Shown here: one piece after another, positions 22,622 to 62,176 of the stretch | How positions within the stretch are numbered: position 1 is the stretch's first letter | Layout: each line of letters starts with the position of its first letter | From: Candidatus Levyibacteriota bacterium | Lineage (GTDB): Bacteria; Patescibacteriota; Microgenomatia; Levybacterales; UBA12049 | DNA length: 64,000 bases | Direction of reading: 5' to 3' | Assembly: GCA_016182185.1 (NCBI GenBank) | Contig: JACOXU010000001.1 | Span: 530,915-594,914, forward strand | Translations under genes and position numbers: made by a program | Notes under the pieces: model-generated | What the model was told of the DNA's origin: nothing | Database searches by the model: none | What the model saw: the letters and a program-made list of their open reading frames with translations, nothing else

Positions 22622-22696
22622 TCCTCTGTAGCTCAGCGGTAGAGCAATCGCCTGTTAAGCGATGGGTCGGAGGTTCGAATCCTCCCGGAGGAGCCA
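22622..22696 (+). tRNA. tRNA-Asn (anticodon GTT), CCA encoded
   Basis: Folded by hand. Acceptor TCCTCTG/CGGAGGA (one G-U pair), D-arm GCTC-AGCGGTA-GAGC, anticodon stem ATCGC/GCGAT, loop cTGTTAa, T-arm GGAGG-TTCGAAT-CCTCC, discriminator G, CCA. The 5' end is identical to E. coli tRNA-Asn (UCCUCUGUAG...). Confidence 0.9.
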
Positions 22697-22799
22697 AGTT
22701 CTCGACAAAAGAATTTCAACCGAGGATAGTTTATCCTGAACGGAGTCGAAGGAAATCCTCGCGAGGGAGCCCAAATTCGTTAGTATAGCCTTCATCTTT

Positions 22800-23378
22800 A
22801 TGAGTTGGCAATCTTGGCAACATCTAGGAAATTTAAGTCCCAGACAATTTGTCTGTGGATTTTGTAGTGATAAAGTTGGTGCCCACATGGGTTACCATAA
22901 CAGCCATAATGGTCACTTAATTTATATCTGTCCAAATTGTGGAGCTCCTACCTATTTTGTTGGTAACATCCAGCATCCCGGAGCAATAATTGGTAGGAGT
23001 ATAAAGAATCTTCCGGAGGATGTTAATGAAGTTTATAGAGAAATCAGAGAATCTGTACAAAACGCTTGCTATACCGCAGCAGTGCTTTTGGGAAGAAAGC
23101 TATTGATGCATATAGCAGTTGATATTGCAAAAGCTAAAGAAGGAAACTCATTTGTTAGTTATATAGACCATTTGAGTAAATCCGGTTACATTCCACCACA
23201 TGGTGGCAAGTGGCTAACTTTTGTTAAAGATATAGGGAATGAAAAAAATCATGAATTAAAAATTGGAGAAAAAGATGAGTCGGAAAAAATACTAAAATTC
23301 ATAGAAGTTCTATTAATATTCATTTATGAGTTCCCAAATGAATTACCCGACGAAGAGGTCGCTACTCCAACAACATAA
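22800..23378 (+). CDS. Zn-ribbon plus DUF4145 (HEPN-like) domain protein
   Basis: N-terminal CxxC...CxxC ribbon (CGFCSDKV ... CPNCGAP). C-terminal EDVNEVYREIRESVQNACYTAAVLLGRKLLMHIAVDIA...IDHLSKSGYIPPHGGKWLTFVKDIGNEKNHE...ILKFIEVLLIFIYEFP follows the DUF4145 consensus including the (R/K)xxGNxxxHE motif. This domain is usually found fused to restriction or abortive-infection proteins. Confidence 0.6.
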   Translation: MSWQSWQHLGNLSPRQFVCGFCSDKVGAHMGYHNSHNGHLIYICPNCGAPTYFVGNIQHPGAIIGRSIKNLPEDVNEVYREIRESVQNACYTAAVLLGRKLLMHIAVDIAKAKEGNSFVSYIDHLSKSGYIPPHGGKWLTFVKDIGNEKNHELKIGEKDESEKILKFIEVLLIFIYEFPNELPDEEVATPTT

Positions 23379-27363: not shown

Positions 27364-28461
27364 TTAGCTGGCCAAGGCTCTATCATAATCTATGCCTCTC
27401 TGGGTTACGGCAGAAACCGCATCATCAAACCGGCTGATTTGCTGTTCTATGTCTTCTTCTGAATTTTTTTCAGAAAGAACCAGTCCGACGAGTTTTTGAA
27501 ATATTTCGACAAGCTTTCTTATCGCGTTTTCCTCCCTGACTTTTTCATAATTTCTTTCTGCGGGGTTTTTTTTGCTTTTTGCAAGATGCACATCTGCTCT
27601 TGCTACATTATGCATAGTCCCTTTCATTGAATCGACCAAGGAATCTAATTTTATTGAAAGTCTTCTTTTTTGTGGTTTTAAATATTCCGTCAAGCCTGAC
27701 AAATAAAAATAAATCATACCAACTCCATTAAGTCTGGCTTTAAAATCAGCTTCTCTTCGTAGCTCTTCTGCTCTTTCCATTATGCTTGACAAGCCTTTTG
27801 GGAAAGGCTCATTGAGCTTCTTAAGAGCCGCTTCTCTTACCTTGTCAATTTTGGGAAGAAGGTCTGGATGCAGCTTGATTATTTGCTCAAAGCTTAAACC
27901 ATCCCTAAGAAAGCTTTTTACCTCTTCAAAATAAAACTTAGGCATAGTCTCAAGATAAACCTCTTCTGCCATTTCTAAACTTCCTATGTCCTTGGCTCTT
28001 ATGACCATGCCGATAATTTCCGGTTTTTCTTCTTTGGGAAAAATATGGGAAGCAACAGAATCTGCTGTATCCGAATGGACAGTATGTGAAATTTCCCTCA
28101 ATATGCCTTTTATTGCTGCTGTATCTCTCTGCCCGTTTGACTCAACTTCAAGTTCTCTTTCGGTTCTTACCTGAAGTTTTTCCATTTTTTCTGTGTCTTG
28201 TGAAATGATCCCTCTTTCAAACAACAATCCTCTGGTTTCAACAAGTGCTGCGATCATTTCCTGTTCAAATGGTGATCTGTATTCTATTGCGTCTTTTACA
28301 ATCTGTTCGTTTCGTCTTCTGAGATCTCTTCTTTCTTGCATTTTTTGGGAAATAATATCAAGATGAAAAAGGGATGTGGCAAGTCTTGCCGCAGGAGAAG
28401 CTTCGGCAACAGGAAGATTGGTATTTATGTCATCCCGATCGTGTAAGACCTCGGCAGCCAT
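27364..28461 (-). CDS. hypothetical protein encoded as third gene of the dnaG-rpoD operon
   Basis: 365 aa, helical/charged. Begins 36 nt after the rpoD stop. No motif recognised. Confidence 0.5.
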   Translation of the reverse strand: MAAEVLHDRDDINTNLPVAEASPAARLATSLFHLDIISQKMQERRDLRRRNEQIVKDAIEYRSPFEQEMIAALVETRGLLFERGIISQDTEKMEKLQVRTERELEVESNGQRDTAAIKGILREISHTVHSDTADSVASHIFPKEEKPEIIGMVIRAKDIGSLEMAEEVYLETMPKFYFEEVKSFLRDGLSFEQIIKLHPDLLPKIDKVREAALKKLNEPFPKGLSSIMERAEELRREADFKARLNGVGMIYFYLSGLTEYLKPQKRRLSIKLDSLVDSMKGTMHNVARADVHLAKSKKNPAERNYEKVREENAIRKLVEIFQKLVGLVLSEKNSEEDIEQQISRFDDAVSAVTQRGIDYDRALAS

Positions 28462-28497
28462 AACAACTCAATTTTAGCAAAAGAAGTAAATAGAAAT

Positions 28498-29580
28498 CTA
28501 TCCCAAATAGTCTTTGAGTTTATTTCCTCGTGATGGATGTCTTAATTTTCGAAGTGCCTTTGCTTCAATTTGTCGTATTCGCTCACGCGTTACCGCAAAC
28601 ATTTTACCTACCTCCTCAAGAGTCTTAGGCTTTCCATCCTTAAGACCAAATCTTTCTTCAAGTACTCTTCTTTCCCGATCAGAAAGCGTACCCAAGACCT
28701 GTTCAACCTGTTCTTTGAGAAGTTCACGCGAGGCGCTGTCAAAAAGAGTCGGCGCCGATGTATCATGAATAAAATCACCCAGGCGAGAATCTTCCTCATC
28801 TCCAACCGGGGACTCAAGGCTGGCAGGTTCTTGGGAAATTTTAATTATTTCCATTGCCTTTTCAGGTTCAATGCCTAAAACTTTAGCAACCTCCTCAGGC
28901 GTTGGCTCTCTTCCTAATTCCTGCATGAGTTTTCGCGACGCCCGTAGAAATCTATTGATATTTTCAACCATGTGAACGGGGATTCTGATCGTTCTTGCCT
29001 GATCGGCAATGGCACGGGTGATGGATTGGCGAATCCACCAAGTGGCATAAGTTGAAAATTTATAGCCTCTCCGCCAATCGTACTTTTCAACAGCCCTTAT
29101 CAATCCCTGATTTCCTTCTTGGATCAAATCAAGAAGAGTCAAGCCTCGTCCGACATATTTTTTGGCAATTGATACAACCAGTCTTAGATTTGAATTTATC
29201 AGAATTTTCTTGGCTTCTTTATCACTCTTTTCAACTCTTTTGGCAAGAGAAATCTCTTGCTCAAAATTAAGAAGCGGTATTCTTCCGATCTCTTTAAGAT
29301 ACATTCTTACAGGATCTGAGATTGTTCCCTCGGTCAGAACGGTTAAAGCCGCCAGTTCTTTTTCCAAATCCTCTATTGGTTTTTCATTCTCCTGATCGGC
29401 GGCAACTGATTCAAAAACATCTATGTCATATTTAAGAAGTTTATCGTAAAGCTTATCCAAATCCTGGATGTGCTCCTCGGGTCTTGGAAAAATTGCCAAT
29501 ATTTCATCCTGGGTTATATAACCTCTTTTTCTTGCAGAATCAACAATATCTTTTAAAATATCGGGAGTTTTTTGCTTCAT
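28498..29580 (-). CDS. rpoD: RNA polymerase primary sigma factor (sigma-70 family)
   Basis: Region 2-4 signatures present: [45 protein letters not shown], and the C-terminal region-4 HTH ([29 protein letters not shown]). Confidence 0.9.
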
Positions 29581-31440: not shown

Positions 31441-32712
31441 ATGGCTGTAACCTTAGTGATTGGGTCTCAGTGGGGAGACGAAGGAAAAGGCAAAATAATT
31501 GATTATCTTTCTTTACAATCAGATTATGTAGTCAGATTCCACGGTGGAAATAACGCCGGCCATACAGTAATCAATAATTTGGGAAAATTCCCCATGCATC
31601 TTGTTCCCTCAGGAATCTTCAACAAAAAAAGCAAGGCAGTTATTGCCAACGGAGTTATCCTGGATCTTGAAGTATTAATCTTAGAAATTGCAAATCTTGA
31701 AAAAGCGGGCATAAAAATAAAAGACAGATTTTATATTTCTCCACGCTGCCATATCATTATGCCCTATCATAAGATTCTCGACCGTCTATACGAAGATGCC
31801 AAGGGGAAAAAGAAAACTGGCACAACCGGAAGAGGAATTGGACCTACATATGCCGATAAAGTGAGCTACAACGGGATAAGAATTTCAGACCTTATGAATA
31901 AAGATTCATTTTTGGAAAAGCTCGACACTCAGCTTCGAATCAAAAATAAAATTCTTGCGGCCCTTGGCGCAAAAAAAGTTTCAAAAAAGAAAGTGATAAA
32001 AAATTTTATGAAGTTTAGAGAAAAAATTAAGCCTTACGTTTCAAATGCCTATCCCCTACTTCATAAAGCGGTAAAGGACAAAAAGAATATTCTTCTTGAA
32101 GGAGCACACGGAGTATTTCTTGATAATGATTGGGGAACCTATCCATTTGTAACTGCTTCAACTGTACTATCAGGCGGAGTAACTCAGGGTGTTGGAATTC
32201 CTCCGGCAAGTATTAAAAATATAATCGGGGTGGTTAAAGCATATACGACACGTGTCGGTGAAGGACCTTTTCCGACTGAACTTTTCAATAGCGAAAGCGA
32301 AAAATTGAGAAAAAATGGAAATGAATTCGGAACAACGACCGGAAGAGCAAGAAGATGCGGCTGGTTAGATGCAGAGCTTATTAAATTCGCAAGTCAAATA
32401 AATGGCTATACCGGACTTGCCGTTACCAAACTTGACGTTTTGGATGGATTTACCAAAATAAAGATTTGTGTTTCTTATACCTTTAATGGAAAAAGAGTTA
32501 ATTATTTTGATGGTGACGCCGGTTTCTTAAGAAGAGTAAAACCAGTTTACAAAACGCTTCCGGGATGGAAAAAATCAACGAAAGGAATTAAAAAATATTC
32601 CGAACTGCCTATTGAAGCCAGGAATTATCTCAAGGAAATTGAAAATTTGGTCGGAATCAAGATTAAATATGTTTCAACCGGTGGGGAAAGAACCGAAATT
32701 ATAAAAATATGA
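31441..32712 (+). CDS. purA: adenylosuccinate synthetase
   Basis: GSQWGDEGKGKIID P-loop and GHTV motif. Full-length at 423 aa. Confidence 0.95.
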   Translation: MAVTLVIGSQWGDEGKGKIIDYLSLQSDYVVRFHGGNNAGHTVINNLGKFPMHLVPSGIFNKKSKAVIANGVILDLEVLILEIANLEKAGIKIKDRFYISPRCHIIMPYHKILDRLYEDAKGKKKTGTTGRGIGPTYADKVSYNGIRISDLMNKDSFLEKLDTQLRIKNKILAALGAKKVSKKKVIKNFMKFREKIKPYVSNAYPLLHKAVKDKKNILLEGAHGVFLDNDWGTYPFVTASTVLSGGVTQGVGIPPASIKNIIGVVKAYTTRVGEGPFPTELFNSESEKLRKNGNEFGTTTGRARRCGWLDAELIKFASQINGYTGLAVTKLDVLDGFTKIKICVSYTFNGKRVNYFDGDAGFLRRVKPVYKTLPGWKKSTKGIKKYSELPIEARNYLKEIENLVGIKIKYVSTGGERTEIIKI

Positions 32713-34124
32713 CAGAACAGAAAAGAAAACCCCTGCCTCTCACAGAACTTACAGCACTTACAACTCTTGATGGACGGAATCGGGCAGATGTAGTGGAACT
32801 TGCTTTTTATGTTTCAGAATTTGGAATTATTAGAACCCGAGTCGAAGTTGAAGCGAAATATTTAGTCGCTCTTTCAGAAGTTGGAGTAGTAAGACCTCTT
32901 ACAAAACCTGAGAAAACAAAGCTTATGTCTTTCGGAGATAGATTTTCTCTTTCTGATGCAAAGAAAATTAAGAAAATCGAAGAAGAAACCGATCATGATG
33001 TTAAAGCAATGGAAAAAGCCTTCAGAGAAATGCTTTCAGGCACATCAATGGAAGACTTAATAGAAAAGGTTCATTTCGGCTTAACATCTGAAGATATAAA
33101 TAACATAACCTACCGTCTTGTCTTAAAACGTGTAACTAAAGAGGTTTTTCTTCCGGTACTTGATGGGCTTGTTGATGATTTACTTAAACGAGCTAATGAT
33201 GAAAAAGAAACTCCCATGCTCGCCCGAACGCACGGACAACCGGCTGTTCCAACAACTCTGGGGCATGAAATTGCGGTCTTTGCCCGAAGACTCAACAAGC
33301 AAGTTCGTTCCCTTGAAGATTATCCTCTTGAAGCAAAGCTGACAGGTGCAATAGGCAACCTCAACGCATTAAAAGACAGCTATCCTGATATAGACTGGAT
33401 TACTTTTTCAGAAAATTTTCTTAGATCTCTCGGATTTGATCCCAATCTCATTACTACCCAAATTGCTCCATATGAAGACGTGATTGAATACTTTCAGCAT
33501 TACTCGCGCATAAACGGAATAGTTCTTGATCTTGATCAGGATGCATGGCGCTACATTAGTGATGATTGGTTTACTCAAGAGTTAAAAGAAAATGAGGTTG
33601 GTTCTTCAACTATGCCGCAAAAGATCAACCCGATAAAATTTGAGAATAGCGAAGGGAATCTGGGAAAATCAACCGCACTGTTTGAATTCGACGCTAGAAA
33701 ACTTCCTGTCTCCAGACTTTCACGAGACCTTTCAGATAGCACTGTTATAAGAGACATGGGTGCTCCTCTTGGCTGGTCGCTTCTGGCCTATAAAAATACG
33801 AGAAGAGGACTTTTACGAATTTCCCCGAATGTTAAACTTATGACGCAGATCTTGAATGAGGATTGGTCGATTCTGGCCGAGGCGGCTCAGACAAGAATGA
33901 GAAGATTTGGCGTTGATGATCCTTACTCTATTGTGAAAAAATTAACTCGAGGCAAACAAATCGGAAGAAAAGAATGGATCGGAATAGTTGATCAGCTTCC
34001 GCTTTCTGATGAAGAGAAAAAAGATTTAAAACGTTTAACACCTGAAAAATATATTGGCTTAGCAGTAGAACTGACCGAAAAAGCTGTAGAAGAAATCAAT
34101 TCCTCAAGAAAAACAATTCATTAA
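32709..34124 (+). CDS. purB: adenylosuccinate lyase
   Basis: Fumarase/aspartase-family fold with the conserved SSTMPQKINP signature. ATGA overlap with purA. Confidence 0.9.
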   Translation: MTEQKRKPLPLTELTALTTLDGRNRADVVELAFYVSEFGIIRTRVEVEAKYLVALSEVGVVRPLTKPEKTKLMSFGDRFSLSDAKKIKKIEEETDHDVKAMEKAFREMLSGTSMEDLIEKVHFGLTSEDINNITYRLVLKRVTKEVFLPVLDGLVDDLLKRANDEKETPMLARTHGQPAVPTTLGHEIAVFARRLNKQVRSLEDYPLEAKLTGAIGNLNALKDSYPDIDWITFSENFLRSLGFDPNLITTQIAPYEDVIEYFQHYSRINGIVLDLDQDAWRYISDDWFTQELKENEVGSSTMPQKINPIKFENSEGNLGKSTALFEFDARKLPVSRLSRDLSDSTVIRDMGAPLGWSLLAYKNTRRGLLRISPNVKLMTQILNEDWSILAEAAQTRMRRFGVDDPYSIVKKLTRGKQIGRKEWIGIVDQLPLSDEEKKDLKRLTPEKYIGLAVELTEKAVEEINSSRKTIH

Positions 34125-34154
34125 AAATTAAAAATTTCAAATTATAAATTTCCG

Positions 34155-34240
34155 CTATTCCCACTCCATTGTTGCTGGAGGTTTTGTCGTTATATCGTAC
34201 ACTACACGGGAGATTCTGGAAACTTCCTCTATGATTTTAA
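34155..34240 (-). pseudogene. orphan 3'-terminal fragment of a second guaA copy (28 codons, [31 protein letters not shown])
   Basis: Its translation ends ...[22 protein letters not shown]. The intact guaA at 35809 ends ...[22 protein letters not shown]. Nucleotide identity is about 83 percent over 60 nt, with differences concentrated at third codon positions. Confidence 0.55.
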
Positions 34241-34867
34241 AGAAGTTTTTTTATAATCTTCTATAGCATTTCTGTGTTTGTAGGCTATGTTTTCAGGAAG
34301 ACTGTCTGGAGAAAAATATTTCCAGCTCCTGTCTTCCTCGTTTAATTTAATTTCTCCTTTAGGTTTTCCATAAAAAATTATGTCAATGTGTATACCCCTC
34401 AGATCATCATCTATTCTGTAAGTACCAATGATCCCAGAGATCTCAACTTCGATTCCAGCTTCTTCTTTTGTTTCTCTTTTTATTGCCTGCTGAGCTGTCT
34501 CTTCATATTTAATAAAGCCTCCGGGAAGAACCCAGTAATCCTTGAAGGGCTCTTTACTTCTCTGAAGCATCAGTATTTTTCCGTCTTTCTCAAGTACAAT
34601 ACTGACTACTGGTTTAGGATTGTTCCAGAAGATGAGGCCGCAATTCTCGCATCTTTTTCTATTGTCTCCATCAACAAGCTCGGATATTAAATCTTCCTTG
34701 CAGTTTGGACAGAAGTTGTATTTATCTAGTGGCTTATTCGTATTTAGCACATTATAAATATTATAGCACTGGGAATATGATTTATTTAGAAGTGGGCTCT
34801 GGAAGATGTTCTTTATACCAAAGGATGGTTTTTCGCAAACCTTCAACAAGTGGAGTAGAAGGGACAT
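34229..34867 (-). CDS. NUDIX hydrolase with N-terminal zinc ribbon (NudC-like)
   Basis: CPNCKEDL...CENCG ribbon, then the Nudix box [24 protein letters not shown]. The track ORF overlaps the upstream epimerase by 86 nt. The true start is probably internal, e.g. the GTG at 34750. Confidence 0.7.
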
Positions 34868-35720
34868 ATCCTATCGCTTCTAATGTACGTGTATCCCCGA
34901 GGGTTACTGAATGCTCAGGCTCTCCTTGTCTCATTGGAAAATGCATAATTGGACTACGGGAATCAGTAAGTCCAACAATTGTTCTTGCAAGCTCATTGAC
35001 TGTAATTCCTTTTCCTGTACCCGCATCCATTACATGATGAACGTAACTTCTAAGCTGCATTGACCGGATCATTACTTCGGCCATGTCTTCTACATATACA
35101 AGATCAAGTATTTGAGTGCCATCTCCAAACACTTCAAGAGGCTCATTCTGAAGAGCTCTTACTATAAAATTGGGCACAGCTTTTCTAACCGGTGCATGTT
35201 TTTGTCTTGGACCATACACATTTAATCCACGAACAACTTTCACATCAACTCCATATTCGCTTTGATACATCAGAGAAAAATCTTCAGCGACTTTCTTCGT
35301 TATGGCATACGGATTCGGCCAGTCAATTCCACCAATTGTAATCATAGTGCCTCTTTTCCCTTGATCTTTTATTGCTTCGAGTACAGTTAGAGCCCCGAAT
35401 ATGTTTTCTCTAACTGCATAAACTGGATCATCAATAGTCTCTGAGGTTCCCAGTACTCCTGCGAGATGAAAAACGTATTTACTCTGAGAGACAGCTCTTT
35501 TAATTTCTTCTTCATCTGCAATATCTCCCTGAATGTGTTTTATAGAAGTTTCACCTGTAGGTATTTGCTTAGTAGAATTATCAAAAGTTATAACTTTGTA
35601 CCCATCTCGTGAAAGTCTGTCAACTAAATGACTTCCGATAAATCCTCTTCCACCAGTTACGAGGATCGCAGAGTCAATTCCTTCTTTTCTTTCACTTACC
35701 GCTTCTTTTTGAAGTGACAT
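34782..35720 (-). CDS. NAD-dependent epimerase/dehydratase (extended SDR, UDP-sugar 4-epimerase-like)
   Basis: ILVTGGRGFIGSHLVDRL is the glycine-rich NAD motif. Catalytic YxxxK region present (YAITKKVAE). Confidence 0.8.
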   Translation of the reverse strand: MSLQKEAVSERKEGIDSAILVTGGRGFIGSHLVDRLSRDGYKVITFDNSTKQIPTGETSIKHIQGDIADEEEIKRAVSQSKYVFHLAGVLGTSETIDDPVYAVRENIFGALTVLEAIKDQGKRGTMITIGGIDWPNPYAITKKVAEDFSLMYQSEYGVDVKVVRGLNVYGPRQKHAPVRKAVPNFIVRALQNEPLEVFGDGTQILDLVYVEDMAEVMIRSMQLRSYVHHVMDAGTGKGITVNELARTIVGLTDSRSPIMHFPMRQGEPEHSVTLGDTRTLEAIGYVPSTPLVEGLRKTILWYKEHLPEPTSK

Positions 35721-35808
35721 GCTGAAATTATAGCAGAATAAATCTAGAAGTCAATATTATAGGCTACTTTGCAACTATTAATCTTTGAGATTAGAAATTG
35801 GGAATTTG

Positions 35809-37377
35809 TTATTCCCACTCCATTGTGGCCGGTGGTTTGGTAGTTATATCGTAGACCACGCGAGACACGCCTTGGACTTCATTTACAATTCTTGATGAAA
35901 TCCTCTGAAGTACCTCATATGGAATCTTTGCCCATGAAGAAGTCATGACATCATTTGATTCAACCACGCGAAGGGCAATAACTTCTCCAAAAACTCTTCC
36001 GTCGCCTTTTACTGCAGTTGAAAAAGCATTGGTTAAAACGGGAAAAGAGAGAAATACTTTTTCCAATATTTTTGCCTTTTTAAGTTCCTCAAGAATTATA
36101 TTATCTGCTTTTTTCTGCTTTTTAAGCCTTGTTTCTGTTACTTCTCCACGGATGCGTATGGCAAAACCCGGGCCCGGAAAGGGCTGTTTTTCTGTAAATT
36201 CTGAAGGAAGATCAAGCCTTCTTCCGATTTCTCTGACTTCATCTTTATAATAATTTCTTACCGGCTCCAAAAGTTTTAATTTCATATTTTTAGGAAGCCC
36301 TCCAACATTATGATGACTTTTTATTCTTGCCGCGTGAATTGCTCCTTTATCCCCCTTCGCTAAAGCTTCGGCGGGACTCCGCTGGGCTCCGCTTTCTATC
36401 ACATCTGAGTAAATTGTTCCCTGAAGAAGAAATTCGGCCTTTATCTTTTGCTTCTTAAGTCTTTTCATCTCTCTCTCGAATATTTTTATATAAGACTTCC
36501 CTATCAATACCCGCTTCTTTTCGGGATCTGATACGCCTTTTAATTTTTTGAGTGTTTCTTTTTGGGCATTTATTATTCTAAGTTTTATATTGATATGAGC
36601 AAAAATTTTCTTAAGGTGCTCTCTAGTTCCGTCTCTCATAAGTCCGTTATCAACGTATACAGGAATAAATTTTCTTCCTATTGCCTTGGCTGTTAGGACT
36701 GAAGCGACAGTTGAATCAACTCCTCCTGAAACTGCTCCGATAACATAGGTCTTCCCGACTTTTTCTTTTATCTCTTTTTCTATTTTTTTGATATCCAAAA
36801 CGTGATTTTGGATTTTCATATCGCACATATAAATAAAATTTTTAAAGATTTCCTTGCCGAACTCGGTATGTTCAACTTCAGGGTGAAATTGAACGCCAAA
36901 GATTTTTTTCTTAAAATCTGCGGCAAAAGCAAACGGAACATGTTCGGTGGAGCCTATTATCTTAAATCCCTTGGGAAGTTTTATTATCTCATCGCCGTGG
37001 CTCATCCAAACCCTAAAAGATTTTGACAAACCATCTGTAATTTTGAATTTTGAATTTTGAATTTTGAATTGACTCGGTCCGTACTCTTTCTTACCATTTA
37101 TAACCTTCCCTCCTAAAAGGAGAGCAGCCAGTTGAAATCCATAGCAAATTCCAAGCATGGGAATATCAAGAGAAAAAATTTGAGAATCAATTGTGGGTGC
37201 GTTTTTTGCATATACAGATGAGGGACCGCCTGAGAGAATTATTCCTTTATTAGTTTTTTTATTTATTTTTCTCACTATCCCCTCAGGCGGAAGAATTTTA
37301 TATGAAATTCCAAGTTCTTTTAGACGGCGAGAAATAAGATGGGTAGTTTGTGATCCAAAATCAATTATTGCAATCAT
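35809..37377 (-). CDS. guaA: GMP synthase (glutamine-hydrolysing)
   Basis: N-terminal class I glutamine amidotransferase (GICYGFQL catalytic Cys), ATP pyrophosphatase SGGVDSTV P-loop, and the C-terminal dimerisation domain ending KPPATMEWE. Confidence 0.95.
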   Translation of the reverse strand: MIAIIDFGSQTTHLISRRLKELGISYKILPPEGIVRKINKKTNKGIILSGGPSSVYAKNAPTIDSQIFSLDIPMLGICYGFQLAALLLGGKVINGKKEYGPSQFKIQNSKFKITDGLSKSFRVWMSHGDEIIKLPKGFKIIGSTEHVPFAFAADFKKKIFGVQFHPEVEHTEFGKEIFKNFIYMCDMKIQNHVLDIKKIEKEIKEKVGKTYVIGAVSGGVDSTVASVLTAKAIGRKFIPVYVDNGLMRDGTREHLKKIFAHINIKLRIINAQKETLKKLKGVSDPEKKRVLIGKSYIKIFEREMKRLKKQKIKAEFLLQGTIYSDVIESGAQRSPAEALAKGDKGAIHAARIKSHHNVGGLPKNMKLKLLEPVRNYYKDEVREIGRRLDLPSEFTEKQPFPGPGFAIRIRGEVTETRLKKQKKADNIILEELKKAKILEKVFLSFPVLTNAFSTAVKGDGRVFGEVIALRVVESNDVMTSSWAKIPYEVLQRISSRIVNEVQGVSRVVYDITTKPPATMEWE

Positions 37378-38523: not shown

Positions 38524-38562
38524 AATTAACTATATATGGAAACAGGATAATTGTCAAGACAA

Positions 38563-39225
38563 TTAGGAGGCGACTGATAAATTTCTCACCTGCTCTCTTA
38601 ATGGCTCTGATAATCCTTGTTTTAAACTGAACTCTCCGAAGGCAGATTCATAACCAGACTCGCTAAGTATTTTCATTCCCTCCTGAACAGTCCCGCACTC
38701 GAATAAATCTTTGTCCAATTGATCTCTTAGTACTTTTGATCCCAATTGATATTTTACTTCCTTGAAAAAAAGCATATCTATATTTCCATTTCCTTTCATG
38801 ACTCCTATTATTCCAATAGGTCCATTTTTCGATTCCTCTGGGTGCACCCTTTGAAGATCGGCAATACTTGGTATAAAAGAATCAACCATATGATAGCCGC
38901 CTATTGTTGGAGGATGGAAATGAAAATCTATTACAGGAACATTTTCTTCTTCCAACTGTTTATCAATCTCTTTTCTGGTTTCATCATCCTGCTCCAAGCT
39001 ATTTATTGACATTACTTTTTCTTCCACTATAGATACGTCTTTTGTTTCAGAATCCATAAAAACAATAAATCCTGCTTCAAATGGTTCCTCTAATTTTTCC
39101 AGTTTATCGTGTAGTCTTTTTATGGATTCCTTGAAAAGTTTAGAATCAATTAATCTTGCGATTTCTTCTCCTGTAAGTAACGGCCTTTGAGACGGCTTAA
39201 TCTCCGGAGACGTGGTCCCTTCCAT
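38563..39225 (-). CDS. hypothetical protein with JAMM/MPN-like motif variant
   Basis: 220 aa. VIDFHFHPPTIGGYHMVD resembles the JAMM motif HxHPx6Sx2D, with His in place of the Ser. Otherwise unrecognised. Confidence 0.35.
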   Translation of the reverse strand: MEGTTSPEIKPSQRPLLTGEEIARLIDSKLFKESIKRLHDKLEKLEEPFEAGFIVFMDSETKDVSIVEEKVMSINSLEQDDETRKEIDKQLEEENVPVIDFHFHPPTIGGYHMVDSFIPSIADLQRVHPEESKNGPIGIIGVMKGNGNIDMLFFKEVKYQLGSKVLRDQLDKDLFECGTVQEGMKILSESGYESAFGEFSLKQGLSEPLREQVRNLSVAS

Positions 39226-39265
39226 GGGCTTATTATACCACCCGACTTAGTGGTAATATAAATAT

Positions 39266-59560: not shown

Positions 59561-60913
59561 ATGACTAAAGAAAATCAAGAACTCTGGAAAGCCATTTTGG
59601 GAGAAATCGAAACAGAAGTATCAAGGGCAATTTTTTTAACCCTTTTTAAACACACTTTTCTTATTTCTTTTGAAAACGGAGTAATGACTATTGCTGCCTC
59701 ATCCGTAATGATCGTCGATCTTCTGCAAAAAAGATATTATCAAATCATAAAAAAGACCGTTGATAAGCATACTGGTCTTAGCGTAAAAATAATTTTTGTT
59801 CCCAAAACTATTTTCCCTGAGATAAAAACTGATGATAAAGATGGACCGCTTTTTGCCGGAGAAGAGAAAAGCACAATAATCGGGCATCTACCGAGAGTAC
59901 GTAAGGAATACACCTTTCAAACTATGGCTGTCTCATCAAGTAATCAGCTTGCTTATGTCAGCGCGCAGACTGTTGCTAAAAAAATTGGTACAGCGTATAA
60001 CCCTCTTTTTATCTATGGGCCGGTTGGAGTAGGAAAAACGCACCTTATACACGCTATTGCAAACAAGGTGTTTGAAGAGTCTCAAGATAAGAAAATTTTT
60101 TATATAACCAGCGAGGGTTTTACAAATGAAGTCGTAGAGGCTATAAGAACAAACGATACTGCAAGAATGAAGAAAAAATTTAGAAACGTAGATATTTTAG
60201 CTATTGATGATGTTCAATTTGTGGCAGGAAAAGAAAGAGTTCAGGAGGAATTATTTCACACCTTCAACACCCTAATAGATAAGGGCGCCCAGGTTGTGCT
60301 TTCTTCGGATAGGCCCCCATCCGAAATAAAAAAACTTGAAAAGAGACTTTCTTCTCGCTTCTCAGGCGGCCTAACAGTCGATATAGAGCCTCCGGATTTT
60401 GAATTAAGAACGGCAATTTTACTTATAAAAGCCAAGAAGTATGATTTTCCGCTAACGATTGATGCGGCAAAAAAAATTGCCGAACACTCACAAGACGCAA
60501 GGAAACTCGAGGGAATTCTATTGCGAATAATGACCGAAGCCCAATCAATCGAGGGGGAATTGTCAAACAATATTATAGAAAAGGTTTTATATAACAATAA
60601 TAAAACTGCTCTTAGTTATTATCACCCAGACGAGATAATAAATAACGTCTGCTCCTTCTATAAAATAAAACCAACCCAAATTAAAGGGGTTAAAAGAGAC
60701 GCCCTTTTGGTTCGGGCAAGGCAAATAGCAATGTATATTTTAAGATCCAGGCTTAATCTTTCATATGTTGAAATAGGAAACATACTCGGCGGAAGAGATC
60801 ACACGACAATTATGCACGGTGTTGAGAAAGTAGAGGGGCTCCTCTCGGGGGAACTGTTTTCGGATGAGGTCAATAAAATAATAAGCACTACTGGGGGAAA
60901 TCTTGTGGATTAA
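59561..60913 (+). CDS. dnaA: chromosomal replication initiator protein DnaA
   Basis: AAA+ Walker A GPVGVGKTH, sensor motifs, and the C-terminal DNA-binding domain (ARQIAMYILRSRLNLSYVEIGNILGGRDHTTIMH). Confidence 0.95.
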   Translation: MTKENQELWKAILGEIETEVSRAIFLTLFKHTFLISFENGVMTIAASSVMIVDLLQKRYYQIIKKTVDKHTGLSVKIIFVPKTIFPEIKTDDKDGPLFAGEEKSTIIGHLPRVRKEYTFQTMAVSSSNQLAYVSAQTVAKKIGTAYNPLFIYGPVGVGKTHLIHAIANKVFEESQDKKIFYITSEGFTNEVVEAIRTNDTARMKKKFRNVDILAIDDVQFVAGKERVQEELFHTFNTLIDKGAQVVLSSDRPPSEIKKLEKRLSSRFSGGLTVDIEPPDFELRTAILLIKAKKYDFPLTIDAAKKIAEHSQDARKLEGILLRIMTEAQSIEGELSNNIIEKVLYNNNKTALSYYHPDEIINNVCSFYKIKPTQIKGVKRDALLVRARQIAMYILRSRLNLSYVEIGNILGGRDHTTIMHGVEKVEGLLSGELFSDEVNKIISTTGGNLVD

Positions 60914-61060
60914 AAGCCCCCCCGCCCCCTCCTTATTTTCCCCCAACCATTTCCACATTTTTATAAACATCTTTTCCACAAAAAAACTACACTGGCAGTC
61001 TTGCTTTTTTCCACTTTTCCCTATAAACTACTACAACTACAAATTTAAATATATTAGTAA
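60914..61060. promoter_or_regulatory. dnaA-dnaN intergenic region with DnaA-box-like TTTTCCACA repeats and an unusual C-rich tract
   Basis: tttccacat, ttttccacaaaa and ttttccactttt (TTWTNCACA-like) occur within 80 nt. Preceded by cccccccgccccctcc and followed by AT-rich sequence. tgtggatta (reverse box) sits at the dnaA stop. Confidence 0.45.
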
Positions 61061-62176
61061 ATGAGAATTCTGCTTCTGTCTGAAAATATTAATAAAAAAT
61101 TACCATTTGTAAGCCATGCTGTTTCAAGCAGGTCGCAACTTCCGATACTTTCTAATTTTCTTCTAAGGTCTCAAAAGGGGAAGTTTTACATATGCGCTAC
61201 CGACCTTGAAATAGGAATAGAGGAAAACATTCCAGCAAACATTGAAGAAGATGGGGAGATAACTGTTCCAGCAAGAGTTTTTTTTGAATTTATCTCAGGA
61301 ATTCAAAAAGGGAAAATTCTCCTTTACACCAAAGAAACGAGCTTATTTTTGGAGTCAGATGGGATCAAAACCGTCTTTCAGACTATGCCACCAGGGGACT
61401 TCCCCAAACTATACGAAGACAAGGGCGGGAAACAGGGAACCTTAAAGAAGGATGTTGTTGAAAAGAATTTTGCAAAAGTTGTTTTTGCGGCAAGCCAGGA
61501 TAACGAGAGACCGGCCCTATCGGGGGTTTTGTTTAAAAAAGAAAAAAGAGGAAGTTTTTCTGTGGTTGCAACCGATGGGTACAGGCTTTCTTTAAAAAGA
61601 GACGTCTCGGTCGTTGAGGAAGAAGAGTCGTCTGACGGGGTTGGGTTTCTTGCTCCCGTAAGATTAATAAAAGAATTAATATCCCTAAAAAACAATGGTG
61701 ATATTGGAATATATTCTTCAAAGAAAAACAATCAAATAATGTTTTTTCAAGATGAAACCGTTTTGGTAGGAAGGTTAATAGAGGCAGAGTTTCCTAACTA
61801 TGAAAAAATAATTCCGAGTGATTTTTCATCAAGAACTGTTTTGGACCGAAGAGAATTGCATCAAGCTGTAAAATCATCTTCAATTTTTGCCCGCGAGACA
61901 ACAAACATTATTAAATTTTCTCTTGAAAAAAACAAAATAACCCTTTCTGCAAGCGCTCCGTCTTTGGGCGAAAGCAGGATTGATGTTGGTGCAAAGACCG
62001 AAGGAGAGGAAAACGAAATAGCCTTCAATGCCAGATATTTACTGGAGCTATTGGGAAACATAGAAGAAGAGGAAGTTGTTTTTGAGATGAGCGGTCCGCT
62101 TAACCCCGGAGTTTTTAAAATACCAGAGGATCCCAACTTTCTCCATATCATCATGCCCATTAGAGTGCAGGGGTGA
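61061..62176 (+). CDS. dnaN: DNA polymerase III beta sliding clamp
   Basis: 371 aa, three-domain clamp pattern, immediately after dnaA. MRILLLSENINKKLPFVSHAV... is a typical DnaN start. Confidence 0.9.
   Translation: MRILLLSENINKKLPFVSHAVSSRSQLPILSNFLLRSQKGKFYICATDLEIGIEENIPANIEEDGEITVPARVFFEFISGIQKGKILLYTKETSLFLESDGIKTVFQTMPPGDFPKLYEDKGGKQGTLKKDVVEKNFAKVVFAASQDNERPALSGVLFKKEKRGSFSVVATDGYRLSLKRDVSVVEEEESSDGVGFLAPVRLIKELISLKNNGDIGIYSSKKNNQIMFFQDETVLVGRLIEAEFPNYEKIIPSDFSSRTVLDRRELHQAVKSSSIFARETTNIIKFSLEKNKITLSASAPSLGESRIDVGAKTEGEENEIAFNARYLLELLGNIEEEEVVFEMSGPLNPGVFKIPEDPNFLHIIMPIRVQG

Follow-up and report, generated by a model that had tools for sequence, protein, structure and literature searches.

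An integrase-less gene cassette apparently inserted at the 3' end of guaA in a Candidatus Levyibacteriota bacterium, with counterparts in other Microgenomates

We analysed a 64-kb window (64,000 nucleotides; contig JACOXU010000001.1, positions 530,915 to 594,914 of the forward strand) from the genome of a Candidatus Levyibacteriota bacterium (GCA_016182185.1). In this window the GMP synthase gene, guaA, is parted from its ancestral neighbour, purB, by a two-gene cassette that lies between two copies of the guaA end. To judge from the sequence, the block between the two genes is an insertion of about 1.53 kb relative to the empty sites of related genomes, and the two copies of the guaA end represent two coding alleles of guaA, not a duplicate that decayed in place. 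The window also holds one instance of a mode of insertion that recurs at the 3' end of guaA in Microgenomates. An initial annotation of this DNA had pictured a single recombination event. This has to be revised, because the event recurs at the same gene end in Microgenomates and the guaA end is an insertion hotspot in other phyla (PMC7775301, PMC9376610). Its central reading stands: one copy is a foreign coding allele, and the cassette was inserted and left a scar.

The guaA gene (35809..37377, reverse strand) is intact. Its product of 522 aa contains the Pfam domains GATase, NAD_synthase and GMP_synt_C at full length, with GMP_synt_C reaching residue 521, and is identical to protein P0121 (Candidatus Levybacteria). 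The last 27 codons and the stop codon of guaA (35809..35892, reverse strand) form the guaA-proximal, attL-like repeat. The purB-proximal, attR-like repeat is a relic guaA end that is not translated (34155..34238, reverse strand). A repeat search found these as a single direct repeat of 81 nt (34156-34236 and 35810-35890; 74% identity, spacing 1654 nt), and a 45-nt degenerate pattern of the guaA tail matched only these two places in the window, where 100 shuffles gave an expectation of 0. Thus, translation and the 81-nt repeat both confirm the initial observation that the fragment at 34155 ends like intact guaA.

The differences between the two copies are not randomly placed. The last 60 nt are 80.0% identical, with 12 differences, which is slightly below the 83% or so that had been claimed. 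Eleven of the 12 fall at codon position 3, as had been noticed, and the remaining one is a conservative V/I change. When 12 random substitutions were simulated 1,000,000 times, no run kept the frame and the stop codon intact with at most one amino-acid change (P<1e-6). Because 11 of the 12 differences sit at third codon positions, the two copies are distinct coding alleles, and the earlier view that they diverged under coding constraint, as another guaA allele, is borne out by the codon positions and the simulation. Both copies contain ACAATGGAGTGGGAATA, an identical stretch of 17 nt in which the published core GAGTGGGA is found. Farther upstream, the 21 nt from -84 to -64 (counted from the guaA stop codon) are only 57% identical, with 4 amino-acid differences and changes at all codon positions. 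The relic is perfectly coding-like at 34155-34214; the remainder, 34215-34238, is a degenerate arm in which the NUDIX stop codon also lies. The reading frame of the relic meets a stop 31 codons upstream and has no guaA body.

Evidence for an insertion comes from the closest relatives by GuaA identity (L086, 80%; L089, 77%; L087 and L088, 76%). All have guaA and purB side by side, 22-50 bp apart, and carry neither a cassette nor a second tail, in the gene order guaB-guaA, convergent purB-purA, dnaG, sigma-70. The initial annotation had pointed to adjacency of purB and guaA in relatives as a check and had regarded a fragment shared with them as a sign of an ancient feature; its reading survives on both counts in L086-L089. 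The more distant Levybacteria L020 and L044 show the same empty arrangement. When L086, L087 and L089 were aligned to the window with BLASTN, the alignment stopped at 35784-35809 and picked up again at 34226-34251; a segment of the relatives, from about -97 to +27, matched both window copies. For L086 the alignment ends at 35784, having passed the guaA stop by about 25 nt. Since the relatives' segment aligns twice and the intervening DNA (34252..35783, reverse strand) has no counterpart in their empty sites, we conclude that about 1.53 kb was inserted and that about 105 bp of target, roughly -81 to +25, was duplicated. The duplicated target comprises the guaA end and part of the guaA-purB spacer. 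The initial description of the repeat was incomplete in that the duplication also takes about 25 nt of spacer past the stop codon.

The two copies do bracket the epimerase and NUDIX genes, as had been stated. The relic is contiguous with the full native guaA-purB spacer of 30 nt (34125..34154), which aligns with the spacers of L086, L087 and L089 through the purB stop; the idea that the fragment is a scar beside purB is therefore upheld. After the functional copy comes a shortened piece that resembles the spacer, CAAATTCCCAATTTCTAAT (35784..35817, reverse strand); it aligns with L086 and forms a hairpin with the last guaA codons. Arrival of the block by recombination together with a foreign guaA tail, as initially proposed, is thus supported by the empty sites as far as the insertion goes, and the origin of the two tails upstream of the core is ambiguous from sequence alone: here both copies match relatives about equally up to the shared 17-nt block. 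At sites where the outgroups L086 and L087 share a state, more changes fall to the functional copy than to the relic (4 sites versus 1), which makes the functional copy the more derived. A sliding-window scan of divergence along guaA showed no breakpoint, because the relatives are too distant to reveal one. As neither GC content nor skew is anomalous over the cassette, composition does not separate the donor from the host.

The structure is not an assembly artefact, since three Logan assemblies, built independently from different samples (L081-L083), show 100% identity across both copies. Two further Logan contigs of the same population (L176 and L177) stop 20-27 nt past the purB stop (window about 34145-34151), before the relic, and L083 starts there. 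A branch of the assembly graph at the guaA-purB spacer could reflect strain polymorphism.

The guaA end may also serve in termination. Its last codons, TGGGAAT, pair with ATTCCCA 5 nt downstream to give a terminator-like hairpin (35817->35799) with a predicted fold of -10.5 kcal/mol and a z-score of only -1.6, which is weak statistically. L086 has an equivalent hairpin (2777-2808), and the motif AATTTCCAATTTC recurs after guaA in Levybacteria (L086, L087, L143). In the relic this pairing is lost. Read as its reverse complement, the relic (CTCCATTGTTGCTGGAG and then a T-rich run) gives a weak terminator-like site at 34164-34180 on the forward strand, 40 nt past the purB stop. It is possible that the guaA end doubled as a purB terminator in the ancestral convergent arrangement. 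No Rfam family was found at the locus.

The cassette encodes two proteins. A putative sigma-70-like promoter of its own, TTGACT-16-TATAAT with TG, proposed from a consensus match at 11/12 positions (35727..35754, reverse strand), lies directly upstream of the epimerase start, reading 35754->35727. The first gene (34782..35720, reverse strand) encodes an NAD-dependent epimerase/dehydratase of the short-chain dehydrogenase/reductase (SDR) type, 312 aa long (Pfam Epimerase, 4e-45; identical to protein P0001), for which all NCBIfam matches fall under the equivalog cut-offs. The second (34229..34750, reverse strand) encodes a NUDIX hydrolase of 173 aa with an N-terminal zinc ribbon (Pfam NUDIX and Zn_ribbon_Nudix). 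Its start is the GTG at 34750, 31 nt past the epimerase stop: this start is used by the gene calls in L081-L083, and homologues (L084, L090, L092) align from it. The 86-nt overlap with the epimerase gene, once taken as a hint of a recent junction, belongs to the longest NUDIX open reading frame (ORF; to 34867) and is an artefact of ORF over-extension, as the gene calls and homologues make clear. We also rejected the idea that the NUDIX C-terminus is a fusion product of the junction, because the homologues have the same length.

The cargo appears to be a functional two-gene module, because the homologous pair is also found as neighbours in other contigs of the candidate phyla radiation (CPR). 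These pairs (L090 4489-5888, L092 3290-4685) have the opposite gene order to the window, overlap by 4-8 nt and lie in unrelated neighbourhoods that are not near guaA; the L092 pair adjoins a Terminase_2 gene. A cassette relative that is 87.5% identical (L084) is a 1512-bp contig that fails to reach the repeats by 45 nt at one end and 21 nt at the other. With a C-terminal GuaA query no protein above 88% identity was found, and its two best partial matches (L173 and L174) have no cassette after guaA. In L173 (1-464) a guaA relative with an in-frame stop, which may be a pseudogene or a sequencing error, is followed directly by dnaG, as in L018; in some Levybacteria the purA-purB pair is missing from the position after guaA.

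The guaA end of the window is not alone in carrying an extra tail. In a six-frame and DNA search of 80 Microgenomates genome loci, together with 80 metagenome loci, extra guaA tails were found at 8 of these 160 other loci: five from genomes (L054 and L060, with two each, L061, L076 and L079) and three from metagenomes (L116, L143 and L165). Each of them follows guaA, on the strand that encodes it. The hosts' GuaA proteins are only 53-66% identical, except within the close group L054/L060/L061, and the footprint of the guaA tail is present in at least seven Microgenomates lineages. The cassettes at the other loci measure 0.06-1.1 kb and contain no integrase. They carry mostly toxin-antitoxin cargo: a MazE-type antitoxin with a PIN toxin, a Phd antitoxin, a TrpR-like protein, DUF4258 with a YokU/MqsA-like antitoxin, an AbiEii toxin and an AAA_28 ATPase. 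Cassette genes are co-directional with guaA at every one of the nine loci (window included), and two loci, L054 and L060, hold two cassettes in tandem. The window is one instance of a recurrent mode of insertion at the guaA 3' end.

The junctions are similar as well: 9 of 11 fragments have theirs in a cluster at -27 to -39. Likewise in 9 of 11, a short degenerate arm (TTACCAnC vs ATCACCACC) leads into the coding-perfect part, which starts at about -30. Longer mimics of the guaA end are found in L079 (-48 to -56), where a 26-nt block immediately upstream of the core is identical between the copies, and in the window (-60 to -81). The MazE/PIN cassette, like that of the window, has promoter-like sites of its own. 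In L061 (9536-9545) the DUF4258 toxin gene begins 2 nt past the guaA stop, and because of this the cassette is probably co-transcribed with guaA. Two loci (L076 9092-9154, L116 7525-7593) have 'empty' units, in which a 33-39-nt spacer with a 10-bp GC hairpin is followed by a second complete tail. Their hairpins, G[T/C]ACCG[A/C]CTGGT[A/G]C, differ by a compensatory pair, and the hosts share only 55% GuaA identity. A scan for shorter repeats with the 12-mer GARTGGGARTRR gave 6 extra matches with no further similarity, which we judged to be chance; L067 10551 is a doubtful exception.

One cassette appears to have moved between hosts. The YokU-type cassettes of L061 and L165 are 82% identical in amino acids and 81% in nucleotides, and their hosts show 58% (aa) and 67% (nt) identity for GuaA and 73% (aa) for PurA. 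The homology covers the arm and the relic tail and ends 2 nt past the stop codon of the tail. In L165 (7516-7556) only the last 11 codons of the DUF4258 toxin remain, which is intact in L061 (9542-9850). Judged on these comparisons, the YokU cassette moved horizontally to the same site between very distant hosts, and the L165 cassette is an antitoxin-only remnant of an L061-type mobile toxin-antitoxin cassette. The MazE/PIN cassette occupies different array positions in L054 and L060, and its divergence is compatible with vertical descent.

Based on these observations, we propose a model for how the cassette reached its site. The topology is well supported: a conservative insertion that duplicated the target and supplied a second guaA-end allele. 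The resident guaA end would have recombined with a guaA-end mimic on incoming DNA, presumably a circle. The outcome would be one complete guaA, with the cassette coming right after its last codons and terminator-like hairpin, and a displaced guaA end left untranslated between the cassette and purB. In line with a restored gene end, the functional copy has a hairpin like that of L086. Catalysis may have been supplied in trans by a site-specific recombinase encoded elsewhere, by analogy with the CR2-sul2 unit, which is moved by the GIsul2 integrase. The cassette may have been kept because it has its own promoter and leaves guaA intact. We favour a site-specific recombinase acting in trans because insertions recur at one site, the junctions cluster, cassettes form arrays, a cassette has passed between hosts that are too divergent for homologous exchange, and there is a published precedent. 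For the full model, a Campbell-type insertion of a mobile cassette with a guaA-end mimic by such a recombinase, we put the chance of its being right at about even.

Several results weigh against this model. By Pfam, the cassette contains only the SDR epimerase and the NUDIX gene between the repeats and no recombinase; a Pfam scan of 34 window ORFs gave no integrase or recombinase, nor did a recombinase motif search by regular expression over the 64 kb. In the 80 genome loci, the first and second ORFs after guaA number 137, and no Pfam family that occurs at least twice among them is a recombinase; neither a partner island nor an integrase was seen near any of the nine loci, and no viral contig has the guaA tail core (0 found). 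Contigs of the same population, found via the epimerase and purB, all carry the integrated form, with no excised circle and no empty site of the same strain among them. A tyrosine recombinase would require a fixed identical overlap region. Within each genome, wobble differences between the copies run through the whole 30-nt core, and no such overlap is visible. Finally, the duplication of about 105 bp with a lineage-typical spacer is far longer than an attachment (att) site of 19-20 bp and fits homeologous recombination at least as well.

The same topology could have arisen without a dedicated recombinase, by a single crossover in which host homologous recombination joined a circle to the chromosome along the homeologous segment of about 105 bp; in its general form, the ultra-conserved guaA end would be portable homology on which cassettes hitch-hike between genomes. 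This we consider a possible though not a probable explanation. It accounts for the lack of an integrase anywhere examined, for the wobble differences across the core and for the identical 26-nt block just upstream of the core in L079. The duplicated segment, -81 to +25, includes the spacer typical of Levybacteria (AATT[C/T]CCAATTTC), and because of this its source would be a related guaA locus and not a minimal att site. However, the copies in 9 of 11 fragments have no more than 27-39 nt in common, with several mismatches, which is a poor RecA substrate, and the YokU cassette moved between hosts whose guaA genes are only 67% identical in nucleotides. Host recombination also predicts neither the clustering of junctions nor the strict co-orientation, and it leaves the origin of the first tail-bearing circle unexplained. 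A version close to the initial annotation's own is homology-facilitated illegitimate recombination of a linear donor from a related Levybacterium, consisting of the 3' part of guaA, the spacer, the epimerase and the NUDIX gene. The donor would have been anchored inside guaA, its far end joined illegitimately about 81 nt before the resident stop, and the resident end kept downstream. Such an event explains a foreign tail and spacer on the guaA side and a native tail and spacer on the purB side; the position of the NUDIX stop codon inside the relic arm and the 57% identity with first- and second-position changes at -84 to -64 are as expected near an illegitimate junction. We nevertheless find it rather improbable. 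It does not predict recurrence in unrelated lineages with junctions at -27 to -39, the tandem arrays of L054 and L060, or the presence of one cassette at one site in hosts that have diverged too far to provide a homologous anchor. No genome was found in which native guaA is followed by the epimerase and NUDIX genes; related pairs lie elsewhere, in the opposite order. Nor is a divergence breakpoint visible along guaA, although the relatives are too distant to reveal one.

Two other explanations fare much worse. Direct repeats around an insert resemble target-site duplications, and the guaA end could have been duplicated locally when the DNA was inserted, as a target-site or tandem duplication, after which the copies diverged in place, with decay of the relic. 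Decay, however, predicts changes at all codon positions, whereas the last 60 nt have 11 of 12 at third positions and neither a frameshift nor a premature stop (P<1e-6); moreover, the functional copy is more derived than the relic (4 sites vs 1), the opposite of relic decay, and about 105 bp far exceeds known transposase target duplications. Local duplication is therefore very improbable. We would give still less credence to the second tail being either a conserved functional element, such as a shared terminator or a regulatory RNA, or an assembly chimera. The weak terminator-like hairpin on the reverse strand of the relic, 40 nt past purB (34164-34180), speaks for a functional element, but it has only 5 bp, the fold energy of the relic is no better than that of shuffles, no Rfam family matches, and the second tail is absent from all of the closest relatives. 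A chimera is contradicted by three independent assemblies that are identical.

A broader proposal includes both a recombinase-borne and a recombinase-free route. The Microgenomates guaA 3' end may be an integron-like platform for the acquisition of cassettes that has no integrase beside it, its agent being either a recombinase acting in trans or a recombinase-independent mechanism that uses short homology and tolerates wobble variation. Co-oriented modules, each with a 30-40-nt mimic of the guaA end, would be inserted one after another at the last codons of the gene; they would comprise toxin-antitoxin pairs, regulators or a nucleotide-sugar-type epimerase/NUDIX pair, and hosts as distant as 58% GuaA identity would take part. 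We offer this tentatively, as an idea that is at present unlikely to be right in full.

The rest of the window gives the setting of the locus. Pfam identifies the genes around the cassette as guaB, guaA, purB and purA. purB (32709..34124, forward strand; Pfam Lyase_1 and ASL_C) encodes adenylosuccinate lyase, is convergent with guaA and is its ancestral neighbour. The window also contains dnaA and dnaN (59561-62176), which places the guaA locus, about 24 kb away, close to the origin. Two other insertions are specific to this lineage, and neither is flanked by a repeat or accompanied by a guaA-tail duplication. One, of 1.13 kb (27367-28498, relative to L087 and L089), carries a 365-aa ORF without a Pfam match (27364-28461, reverse strand) between the sigma-70 gene and a NAGPA-domain gene, which are adjacent in relatives. 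The other (38560-39250) lies between comM and guaB, where the gap is only 10-230 bp in L089, L006 and L018, and carries a 220-aa ORF, again without a Pfam match (38563-39225, reverse strand). The only tRNA gene in the window, tRNA-Asn (22622-22696), is followed by an ORF with a DUF4145 domain (22800-23378), and the two together (22622-23378) could be a small island at a tRNA end.

Mobile elements of CPR bacteria (Patescibacteria) are poorly known, and their small genomes are thought to be rather static. At the locus described here, genes have been gained at a hotspot that can be defined precisely, and one can see the empty site, the two junctions and the cargo. A cassette family common to distant hosts points to an active route of exchange for toxin-antitoxin and small metabolic modules without an element-borne integrase. 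guaA-tail repeats can serve as a simple marker in the sequence by which to find genes that CPR genomes acquired recently, and they allow a hunt for the recombinase by co-occurrence. For annotation, the relic should be flagged as a non-gene and the NUDIX start corrected.

How does the cassette compare with known systems? In the literature, the guaA 3' end is described as a hotspot at which genomic islands and integrative and conjugative elements (ICEs) insert; these use P4-type tyrosine integrases and are flanked by direct repeats of 19-20 bp (PMC7775301, PMC9376610, PMC5704250); ICERspD18B has the direct repeat ACAATNGAGTGGGAATNNTT and GIsul2 the core GAGTGGGA (PMC7775301, PMC9376610). As in these islands, the target in the window is the last codons of guaA, guaA stays intact and direct repeats flank the insert; both copies hold ACAATGGAGTGGGAATA, which matches the published repeat and core. 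Unlike them, the window has no integrase, AlpA, transfer or replication genes. Its insert is 1.5 kb rather than 15-30 kb, its repeat copies are 81-105 nt long and 74-80% identical, against nearly identical copies of about 20 nt in the islands, and its host is a CPR bacterium. The insertion that spares guaA and the core-bearing repeats are thus shared, and because there is no integrase of its own we do not count the cassette as a member of the autonomous guaA-island family.

Functionally, the window structure resembles elements that lack a recombinase. The GIsul2 integrase excises and integrates the integrase-less CR2-sul2 unit between att sites at guaA ends (PMC9376610), and cis-mobilizable elements (CIMEs) are decayed, att-flanked elements that accrete in tandem at the ends of target genes (PMC5704250). 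With CR2-sul2 and CIMEs of the ICESt1 type the Microgenomates cassettes share a small recombinase-less cargo between two copies of a target-gene end, tandem arrays at one site (L054, L060) and the frequency of toxin-antitoxin cargo. The window cassette has attL/attR-type flanks and lacks integration and transfer genes, as a CIME does. In contrast, the Microgenomates cassettes are much smaller (0.06-1.65 kb) and all co-oriented with guaA, and descent from a larger, decayed element is not evident. A cognate integrase for the att-like sites was found neither in the 64-kb window nor beside guaA in 80 related genomes.

Integron cassettes are likewise small, co-oriented and mostly single-function units at a fixed site, each bounded by a copy of the recombination site, and toxin-antitoxin cassettes are common among them. 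However, the guaA-end loci lack IntI, attI and an attC-type imperfect palindrome, their repeat is the end of a coding gene, the window and MazE/PIN cassettes carry promoter-like sites, and arrays hold at most two cassettes. The defining features of an integron gene cassette are thus missing from the window. Xer-dependent elements (integrative mobile elements exploiting Xer and pdif modules) also lack a recombinase and integrate in tandem at one chromosomal site of about 28 bp by means of host enzymes. The window site, in contrast, lies inside a gene about 24 kb from dnaA/dnaN and is not a terminus dif; we rejected the dif/Xer idea because the locus is origin-proximal, and also on the direct orientation of the repeats, since pdif sites alternate in orientation. 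A transposon with a target-site duplication was rejected too: the repeat is 81-105 nt long and 74-80% identical with wobble-confined differences, and the repeat search found no terminal inverted repeats flanking the insert. Integration at the 3' ends of tRNA and tmRNA genes offers a final parallel, in that the element carries a mimic of the gene end, the gene survives and the displaced end becomes the distal repeat. Here the target is protein-coding, and because of this the guaA-end mimic would evolve under codon constraint, with differences confined to wobble positions. In sum, the case is best classed as guaA 3'-end integration in an integrase-less variant, which is new for CPR bacteria and forms part of a recurrent mini-cassette phenomenon in Microgenomates.

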